Positions 61,945 through 64,000 of a stretch of DNA of 64,000 nucleotides are shown here, in pieces (the first letter of the stretch is position 1; each line of letters starts with the position of its first letter). The translations under genes and the position numbers were made by a program. Source of the stretch: Promethearchaeota archaeon (lineage in GTDB: Archaea; Asgardarchaeota; Lokiarchaeia; Sigyniarchaeales; SOKP01); assembly GCA_019057865.1 (NCBI GenBank), contig JAHLWP010000003.1, positions 64,001 through 128,000 of the forward strand, in the 5' to 3' direction. The notes under the pieces were generated by a model that saw only the letters and a program-made list of their open reading frames with translations, did not search any database and had not been told where the DNA came from.

Positions 61945-62211
61945 TTATGAACTAATCAAATGGAACAAGATAGAGGCATGTGGGATATAAAATTCATCGC
62001 GCTTTTTAATCACAACAGTGTGAAAGTATTCAGCAAGTCCCAGAAACCCTCTGATTACAGATTCATCTTCTTCAAATCTGAAGATAACATTTGCGATTGC
62101 TGATGACGTACTAAAACCCACTTTGTCGTATACACGCTCATCAATTAATGGAATTTTTAGTTCATTAACAATCTCATACACCCTTTTAATGAAAAGTTCC
62201 TTTTTTGGCAA
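61945..62211 (-). CDS. Small hypothetical protein
   Basis: TTG at 62211 after an AGGTGG SD; globular-looking sequence. Confidence 0.6.
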   Translation of the reverse strand: MPKKELFIKRVYEIVNELKIPLIDERVYDKVGFSTSSAIANVIFRFEEDESVIRGFLGLAEYFHTVVIKKRDEFYIPHASILFHLISS

Positions 62212-62503: not shown

Positions 62504-63205
62504 GTGGTTTCAAAAGAACAGAAAAAAATCGAACGCGTTATCAACTTTATGAAAAAAGGCTTAACATCTCTCGCTGATGATCTAGGAGAAACGGTAAAAG
62601 GAATAAATGATTTTATTAAATCTTTAGCAAAAGCTCAAAAAGATTTAAAGGAGATTTCTGTTATAGAAGAAGTTACTACTGTAAGTACCTCCTCTAAAAA
62701 AGTTCTTGCTCCAACTGGTACTACTGCGAAAACGAAAGCTGCAAGTACATTATTTAGTTTATTAAGTGGAAGTGGCCAAGTGGGTGCACCTATACCTGCA
62801 ACAGCTGCAGCTACTCCTAGTGCTCCCTCTGTTGCCGGTGGTCCTCCAAAACGCCCAGGTAAGAGAGGTCCTCCATCCGCACCAACTGGTGGAGCTCCTC
62901 CGACAGCGCCTAGTGGTGGTTCTCCTAAACGAGCTAATTTACCACCAGCTCCGAAATTACCGCCGGCACCAACTCCTGGAGCTACACCTCCAAAGGCACC
63001 AACTACTGGTGGTCCCCCTGCAAAACCACCTTCATTTGCTAAAAGACCCGGACCTCCTGCAACACCAACTGGGGCTCGTCCACCAACACCGCCTGGTGGA
63101 GCAACACCTGCAATAGCTCCTAAAGCGGGGGGAGGGTTAAGTTCTCTCCGTGATGAGATGTTAGACGAATTAAACCGATTAAAAAAGATAATGAGAGGAG
63201 AGTAA
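62504..63205 (+). CDS. Coiled-coil / proline-rich / WH2-like-tail protein
   Basis: N-terminal amphipathic helices, a >100-aa Pro/Gly/Ala/Thr tract (GGPP, PPTAP, PPAP), and C-terminal LRDEMLDELNRLKKI. Confidence 0.75.
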   Translation: MVSKEQKKIERVINFMKKGLTSLADDLGETVKGINDFIKSLAKAQKDLKEISVIEEVTTVSTSSKKVLAPTGTTAKTKAASTLFSLLSGSGQVGAPIPATAAATPSAPSVAGGPPKRPGKRGPPSAPTGGAPPTAPSGGSPKRANLPPAPKLPPAPTPGATPPKAPTTGGPPAKPPSFAKRPGPPATPTGARPPTPPGGATPAIAPKAGGGLSSLRDEMLDELNRLKKIMRGE

Positions 63206-63439
63206 GAAACTCAAAGAAACTTATATTTCTTTTTCTACAATTGTAAATTGTCTCATTTTTAATATTTTATTACACAATTCTAAATTTATAGATTATTTCA
63301 TCATATGTCATGTGACATCGAGTTCACCGAAATTTTATTAGTGTAAAAGTAATTAATATTTTAGACTTAATATAATATAATACTAGATATAGTTATTTAG
63401 GGTATTTATCTTAAAAATAAATTTAAACTATAATAAGGT

Positions 63440-64000
63440 ATGGGAAATCTTACTGTTGTTTTAGATATCGGTCAATTTTCTTCAAAAATTGGATTTGCAG
63501 GAGAGGACACACCATCTCAAGTGTTTTTGACTATAGTTGGAAAGCCAAAATATCAATCTTTAGATACTCAATATGGTTTGAAGGATTTAGAGGAAAAAGA
63601 ATTATATGTAGGCGATGAGATTCAATCAATTGGCTTATATAAAATATTTCAACCTATTGAAAAGGGGATAATTGTTGATTGGAAACATTTTCAAAATATT
63701 ATTGACTATATCTTTTATAACTTACGAGTAGATCCTAGTCTTGTTAATGTATTATTCGCTATACATCCATTATTTCCATATACTGATTTAGAAAGAATCT
63801 TTGAGCTCTTTTTAGAACGTTATCAGTGTATGGCGTTCTATCCAGTATTAGATTCCATGTTAACATTATATTCTGGAGGTTTTCAAACCGGTTTAATTAT
63901 TGAAATTGGTGATAGCAATACCAGAATAGTACCGATTTATCAAGGTTATAAAATAGAACATGCAGTAAAGATGTTAGATATTGGGGGGAGAGTATTAACT
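63440..64000 (+). CDS. Actin-family protein (Asgard actin/ARP-like), 3'-truncated by the window end; not in ORF track
   Basis: Translates MGNLTVVLDIGQFSSKIGFAGEDTPSQVF..VGKPK..YVGDE..PIEKGIIVDW..LYSGGFQTGLIIEIGDSNTRIVPIYQGY..LDIGGRVLT, giving actin phosphate-1 and phosphate-2 motifs. Confidence 0.93.
   Translation, partial: MGNLTVVLDIGQFSSKIGFAGEDTPSQVFLTIVGKPKYQSLDTQYGLKDLEEKELYVGDEIQSIGLYKIFQPIEKGIIVDWKHFQNIIDYIFYNLRVDPSLVNVLFAIHPLFPYTDLERIFELFLERYQCMAFYPVLDSMLTLYSGGFQTGLIIEIGDSNTRIVPIYQGYKIEHAVKMLDIGGRVLT

Follow-up and report, generated by a model that had tools for sequence, protein, structure and literature searches.

The gene at 62504-63205 of the window (the whole 64,000-nt stretch of Promethearchaeota archaeon DNA that was analysed) belongs to an undescribed pan-Asgard family that combines an anchoring head, a proline tether and a near-invariant C-terminal helix, the last being a candidate docking element. 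The most likely single partner of this helix is Lokiactin, at a probability of roughly one in three. No description of the family was found in the searched literature, with subscription journals mostly outside its coverage, and the named homologues of the 233-aa protein are nearly all Promethearchaeota hypothetical proteins. The features of the locus are listed in Table 1.

Table 1. Features of the proline-arm adaptor gene and its neighbours, in window coordinates
Feature	Position	Strand	Remark
88-aa alpha/beta protein, most widely conserved neighbour	61945..62211	-	co-occurs with the soluble form
Proline-arm adaptor gene, soluble form of the pan-Asgard family	62504..63205	+	GTG start, 233 aa
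N-terminal amphipathic helix, coiled-coil-like head (aa 4-49)	62513..62650	+	hydrophobic period 102 degrees
Short second helix (aa 74-87), conserved hydrophobic LFxLL face	62723..62764	+	
Disordered Pro/Gly/Ala arm (aa 95-205)	62786..63118	+	33% Pro, PP runs only
Conserved proline motif LPPAPKLP (aa 146-153)	62939..62962	+	44/50 Lokiarchaeia members
Near-invariant C-terminal helix (aa 212-230), consensus LRxEMLxELxRL	63137..63193	+	pan-Asgard, portable
AT-rich gap, 234 nt	63206..63439		125-5889 nt in relatives, often with another gene inside
Divergent actin-related gene, 5' part	63440..64000	+	373 aa in full; altered nucleotide-site motifs

We consider 62504-63205 to be a real gene because single-copy orthologues of its protein occur in 139 of the 161 genomes of the class. 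A 116-aa overlapping ORF (62766-63116) was interpreted as a shadow of the proline-rich gene in another reading frame, and a promoter and terminator scan stayed at chance level. The layout read in the first-pass annotation, with a proline-rich arm between an N-terminal and a C-terminal helix, was borne out by the AlphaFold2 model and by composition. The model, built for the free chain on a 24-sequence alignment, predicts the three helices of Table 1 (pLDDT 81-93 for the first and the last) and leaves the arm disordered, with no tertiary fold or packing (pTM 0.22). The sequence count of the arm gave 11 PP pairs and no PPP, confirming the earlier remark that the proline runs are only PP, and the longest run is also two in 39 of 50 class members. 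The tail sequence quoted at that time was likewise exact. The chain ends three residues past the end helix and contains no Trp. Pfam, PDB-sequence and ESM Atlas searches with the protein and its tail returned no named match; weak matches to CCDC53 (E 0.012), OAR (E 0.008) and SHOCT (E 0.19) were dismissed as noise.

The architecture of the family, its distribution, its conservation, the portability of its helix and the swapping of its heads were observed directly. The profile of the last 34 residues matched 345 of 400 Asgard genomes, among them 84 of the 90 high-quality ones. Among 53 tails drawn from all major Asgard lineages, L215, M219 and E222 are unchanged, and E218, R225, L226 and K227 each occur in at least 90%; this strong conservation supports the earlier view of the tail as a likely binding motif. 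The glycines preceding the end helix are variable. The hydrophobic stripe of the helix runs unbroken (212, 215, 219/220, 223, 226, 229/230) between conserved Glu and Arg residues, and the net charge of the tail is zero. This conservation contrasts with the head and the arm, which diverge or get replaced. Loki, Odin and Jord/Freya-type genomes, together with two further families, have a soluble long helix as the head. In its place, Thor, Heimdall, Borr/Sif and Wukong-type genomes and Baldrarchaeia-labelled proteins have 1-10 transmembrane segments and a helical hairpin. By a strict pattern, the helix is internal in 16 and tandem in 6 of 112 representatives among 1.84 billion proteins. Rab/Roc GTPases and zinc-finger proteins carry it two or three times in tandem; Lokiarchaeia reuse it in such proteins, often in this tandem form, and the window's own genome also carries an internal copy. 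These internal and tandem copies in GTPases and zinc-finger proteins show that the end helix is a portable module.

Several individual members were recorded in passing. One small protein (L195; G000:C87:76688-77149, minus strand) has an internal copy of the tail helix preceding a Cys-pair zinc-finger-like domain, and its relatives have two or three copies plus GTPase or longin-like domains. Family f16 has the gene as a tandem pair, with about 10 transmembrane segments per copy (L086 and L089), and P0159 is a fusion in which a member sits between an N-terminal transmembrane segment and a TIR_2 domain (E 6e-18) at the C-terminus. The tail profile missed a diverged membrane-anchored member (L367:748-1566) that stands in the usual place before a ribose-5-phosphate isomerase-like gene.

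The tail profile matched nothing in 14 genomes from families f22-f25 (Njordarchaeia where named), and the best actin of these families is divergent (441-532 bits versus 666-784). Family f24 keeps Snf7 in all seven of its genomes though a tail match was not found there. A match was also missing from two genomes that have canonical Lokiactin, and the profile overlooked a diverged family member in genome G310, so that a missing match does not amount to absence. The missing tail match in f22-f25, alongside a divergent actin, may go back to one event in one clade.

The first-pass annotation had called the tail WH2-like; WH2 domains bind G-actin in the cleft that separates subdomains 1 and 3. The family does resemble the WH2 nucleation-promoting factors (WASP, WAVE and WASH; PF02205) in its helical head, proline-rich linker and terminal amphipathic helix and, in the window's lineage, in the LKK that follows this helix. 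However, Pfam WH2 matched none of the 53 tails and nothing genome-wide at E values up to 10, and the L-basic-basic-T/V motif that is the signature of WH2 (PMC9433394) occurs in 0 of the 53. The fourth motif residue is I, L, F or Y rather than T or V, the third is often A, S, T or E, and both basic positions are basic in 27 of the 53 tails. In addition, residues 212-230 were modelled as one continuous helix, with the stripe reaching M230, so that the helix is predicted to run through LKK with no spacer before it. WH2 identity is thus not supported by the profile, motif and helix-plus-spacer tests. The C and acidic regions of these factors are missing from the family, and the 233-aa protein has neither a WASP-type central helix nor an acidic, Trp-bearing Arp2/3 tail. 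The Asgard 2DGel gelsolins share a leucine-led four-residue motif (LRRV, LKHV or LVDV; PMC9433394, PMC7444086), but theirs comes after a gelsolin domain and closes with V or T, whereas the 233-aa family has no gelsolin domain and its motif ends in I, L, F or Y.

Likeness to Ena/VASP lies in an oligomerising helix (a candidate here), a proline arm and a helical motif, and also in the linker. There LPPAPKLP, whose retention across the 50 class members is uncorrected for their shared kinship, resembles the high-affinity profilin site of VASP, which we take as a lead only. In contrast to Ena/VASP (PMC10340426), the family has no GAB and no EVH1 (the head is a single helix with no Pfam match), GP5-type polyproline is absent, and VASP_tetra (PF08776) found no match at the locus at E values up to 10. 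A likeness to the F-actin-binding (FAB) segment of VASP, proposed earlier from GGG-L, did not hold for this tail: the glycines vary, and when the human VASP FAB peptide, its sequence taken from PMC10340426, was scored on tail profiles against 2000 shuffles, 296 of the 2000 matched its score on the family's own profile. No WH2, FAB or other actin-binding family matches the tail. The family has the tethered-helix adaptor layout seen in eukaryotic actin and ESCRT systems, and by no test that we ran is it a member of WH2, Ena/VASP, WASP or ESCRT-III.

The FAB peptide instead fits a sister family, which is widespread in Asgard and has the same coil-arm-helix layout. Its representative elsewhere in the window's genome is a protein of about 140 aa (L193:2431-2850; G000:C75:102430-102849, minus strand) with a coiled coil, a GPPPPP arm and an end helix. 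On the profile of the sister family the peptide was matched by only 1 of 2000 shuffles, in a test that was picked after the alignment had been seen and whose shuffles lose helical periodicity, and it shares 11 of 20 residues with three Thor-family sister members. The FAB likeness of the sister helix is accordingly a lead, read from sequence, and the sister is a stronger VASP-like candidate than the 233-aa protein itself. The two end helices align weakly (hhalign probability 79%), and the cross-scores between members of the two families lie within the shuffled range; both helix types co-occur within single chains in some proteins. In L. ossiferum the sister (inferred tag 02219) is abundant in the proteome and does not appear in the Lokiactin co-IP rows with a log2 ratio above -1.06. 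Two further loci were noted: an Arf-like GTPase of about 420 aa with a sister-type helix at its end (L194:1220-2476; G000:C82, minus strand), and a 24-kb stretch of a Freya genome (G277:C1:2271544-2295146, covered in part by L100) that holds two Snf7 genes, the gene of the 233-aa family and the sister.

The co-oriented actin homologue reported 234 nt downstream is present: the ORF starting at 63440 on the plus strand belongs to the actin family (Pfam Actin, E 1.5e-41) and gives 373 aa when read on along the contig. It is not Lokiactin, whose pan-Asgard clade is conserved and keeps its nucleotide-site motifs intact, but a divergent actin-related paralogue (ARP), one of four actin-family genes in the window's genome. 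Because it is only 42% identical to the Lokiactin of the genome (encoded on another contig, C31), has altered phosphate loops and has Asp at the catalytic Gln position, we regard it as a lineage-restricted ARP; ARPs of such a kind have been described (PMC9834061). Hits with E below 1e-100 were found only in the Loki families f1 and f3. Three side observations concern the actin-family genes and their surroundings. The ARP (L001:3441-4562) has, near its C-terminus, a basic insertion similar to the last part of the sister helix, a likeness that is probably a coincidence. A small conserved gene follows the ARP across f1 (L001:4666-5004; 112 aa, winged-helix-like by eye) and is duplicated in one genus. 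Another actin-family protein of 509 aa (L004:1477-3003; G000:C66) has an insertion with two zinc-ribbon-like Cys pairs.

The first-pass annotation had pointed to a nucleation or elongation factor that would carry WH2 and serve this neighbouring actin homologue specifically, a model that we now consider very unlikely. Gene order is conserved in f1, the window's own family, where the gene and the ARP are co-oriented and within 6 kb in all 108 genomes with both on the same contig, and in one f3 genome the gene, the ARP and the 88-aa gene all lie inside a 45-kb region. However, the gap in f1 is at most 500 nt in only 37 of the 108 (500-1500 nt in 60), larger gaps often being an inserted gene in the cases examined, and the neighbouring housekeeping genes of the f1 block are equally syntenic. 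In f3, which includes L. ossiferum, the distance between the gene and the ARP is 43-272 kb, so that the synteny check set beforehand found adjacency unconserved outside one family. The tail occurs throughout the phylum and stays the same in genomes that lack the ARP; the latter, confined to two families and far younger than the tail, therefore cannot have shaped it. With the failure of the WH2 tests, these results speak against a dedicated pairing.

On the other side of the gene lies the 88-aa gene, which adjoins the family gene in eight families, in varying orientation, and in f3 lies 8-19 kb from the ARP in 4 of 5 genomes. Its product is predicted to be a small alpha/beta domain (pLDDT 93), is up to 100% identical within the genus and has no family match; no clear counterpart emerged from fold searches, in which the best Z was 4.0 and the Atlas hits, at a TM of about 0.65, were to parts of larger proteins. 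The gene is present in the sampled soluble-head lineages and was not found in the sampled membrane-anchored lineages, except in 1 of 17 Thor genomes. We regard its product as a candidate partner for the head that perhaps replaces the membrane anchor; the lineages being related, this co-occurrence may be a single event. Since the membrane-anchored lineages keep the tail and the 88-aa gene was not found in them, its product is not the universal partner of the tail.

We propose that the family works as an adaptor whose head would fix it in place. In the window's protein the long amphipathic head helix would oligomerise or bind the 88-aa neighbour, and in the Thor-, Heimdall-, Sif- and Wukong-type proteins the 1-10 transmembrane segments and helical hairpin would serve as the anchor. 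The flexible proline arm would then present the terminal amphipathic helix, which would dock on a partner that almost every Asgard archaeon has. On Lokiactin, the helix would sit in the hydrophobic cleft in an all-helical, non-WH2 mode, as arcadin-2 does on crenactin, and Lokiactin filaments or monomers would be tethered to membranes or complexes, and the neighbouring ARP could be no more than a secondary client. Binding of the helix to a second protein, the identity of that protein as Lokiactin and any effect on polymerisation are what we infer.

A near-invariant tail on a diverging head and arm is the pattern of a short motif that reads a slowly evolving partner. Across most of the phylum, Lokiactin sequences share 67-80% identity, and we count this match in conservation in favour of Lokiactin as the putative partner. 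We count on the same side the tail match missing from f22-f25, where actin is divergent and f24 has kept Snf7, and also the conserved proline motif resembling a VASP profilin site and the same-layout sister with its apparently FAB-like helix. The machinery that recruits profilin-actin in Asgard has been reported as still undiscovered (PMC9433394). Arcadin-2 of Pyrobaculum offers a precedent for a C-terminal helix in an actin cleft (PDB 5LY3; PMC5173319): it too is archaeal, is encoded near an actin gene and has a C-terminal helix as its conserved working end. In contrast to arcadin-2, whose binding has been demonstrated, the 233-aa family is known here from sequence, with no match in the PDB-sequence search, and the actin beside its gene is not the main filament actin.

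Other results weigh against Lokiactin. The L. ossiferum orthologue, whose tag GNAMCCOK_00620 was inferred by counting from two anchors, is absent from the Lokiactin co-IP rows with a log2 ratio above -1.06 (bioRxiv 10.1101/2025.11.30.690169), as are all tags from 00616 to 00627, and it is not among the approximately 2,000 most abundant rows of the L. ossiferum proteome; weak binding or low abundance could hide it from the co-IP. Of the top unnamed co-IP proteins, those that could be located have neither the tail helix nor the sister helix, and no linkage to Lokiactin, profilin or gelsolin genes was seen at the loci examined. The zero net charge of the tail, which differs from basic actin-binding motifs, would also count against Lokiactin. 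A role as an actin regulator acting through Lokiactin is nevertheless possible. We find distinctly doubtful the fuller proposal that the family and its sister are the missing actin-assembly adaptors of Asgard, present since the last Asgard ancestor, in which proline arms anchored to membranes or complexes would recruit profilin-actin and a Lokiactin-docking helix would be ancestral to the FAB and WASP-C type of eukaryotes.

Some of the same observations fit readings in which actin plays no part. It is a possible, if tentative, account that the tail is an assembly helix, coiling with itself or with the sister helix and clustering its carriers as the VASP tetramerisation coil does, with no actin binding. 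The continuous stripe with its Glu and Arg flanks, the zero net charge, the extreme C-terminal position, the occurrence of tail and sister helices together in single chains and the missing co-IP rows are all consistent with it; yet Pfam VASP_tetra found no match, 19 residues are short for a free-standing coil, and near invariance across the phylum together with tandem copies would be more typical of a ligand motif. Somewhat doubtful is a membrane or signalling rather than cytoskeletal adaptor whose helix would dock on some protein shared by all Asgard archaea, neither actin nor Vps4; a small GTPase, a longin, a roadblock protein and the product of the 88-aa gene are examples. Most of the extra helix copies do belong to GTPases and zinc-finger proteins, eight families have the 88-aa gene beside the family gene and the co-IP shows no link to actin, but the 88-aa gene was not found in tail-keeping, membrane-anchored lineages and the neighbourhoods give no other candidate (ribose-5-phosphate isomerase-like and tRNA-endonuclease-like genes, by sequence reading).

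MIM1 is a terminal amphipathic helix on an ESCRT-III core that ends in a leucine-basic pair, with the consensus (D/E)xxLxxRLxxL(K/R). An ESCRT adaptor whose MIM1-like tail would recruit the MIT domain of Vps4 appears unlikely, though the tail is indeed a short terminal amphipathic helix with a leucine-basic end that follows a flexible, Pro-rich linker, and a single Freya genome has Snf7 genes about 10 kb away from the family gene. The hairpin of the membrane-anchored forms also recalls a SHOCT or steadiness box (SHOCT at E 0.19 only; PMC11188069). Against this, the 233-aa protein has no Snf7 core, an invariant Glu (53 of 53 tails) stands where MIM1 has Arg, ESCRT genes are not among the recurrent neighbours, and f24 retains Snf7 in 7 of 7 genomes yet gave no tail match.

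Asgard cells crawl on Lokiactin, the known regulators of which are profilins and gelsolins only (PMC13716822). A 19-residue helix that is almost unchanged across Asgard would mark a core interaction, of which the searched papers contain no description. If its partner is not actin, that partner would still be a phylum-wide hub, and the putative docking helix sits on membrane anchors in the lineages nearest eukaryotes and has been copied into GTPases.
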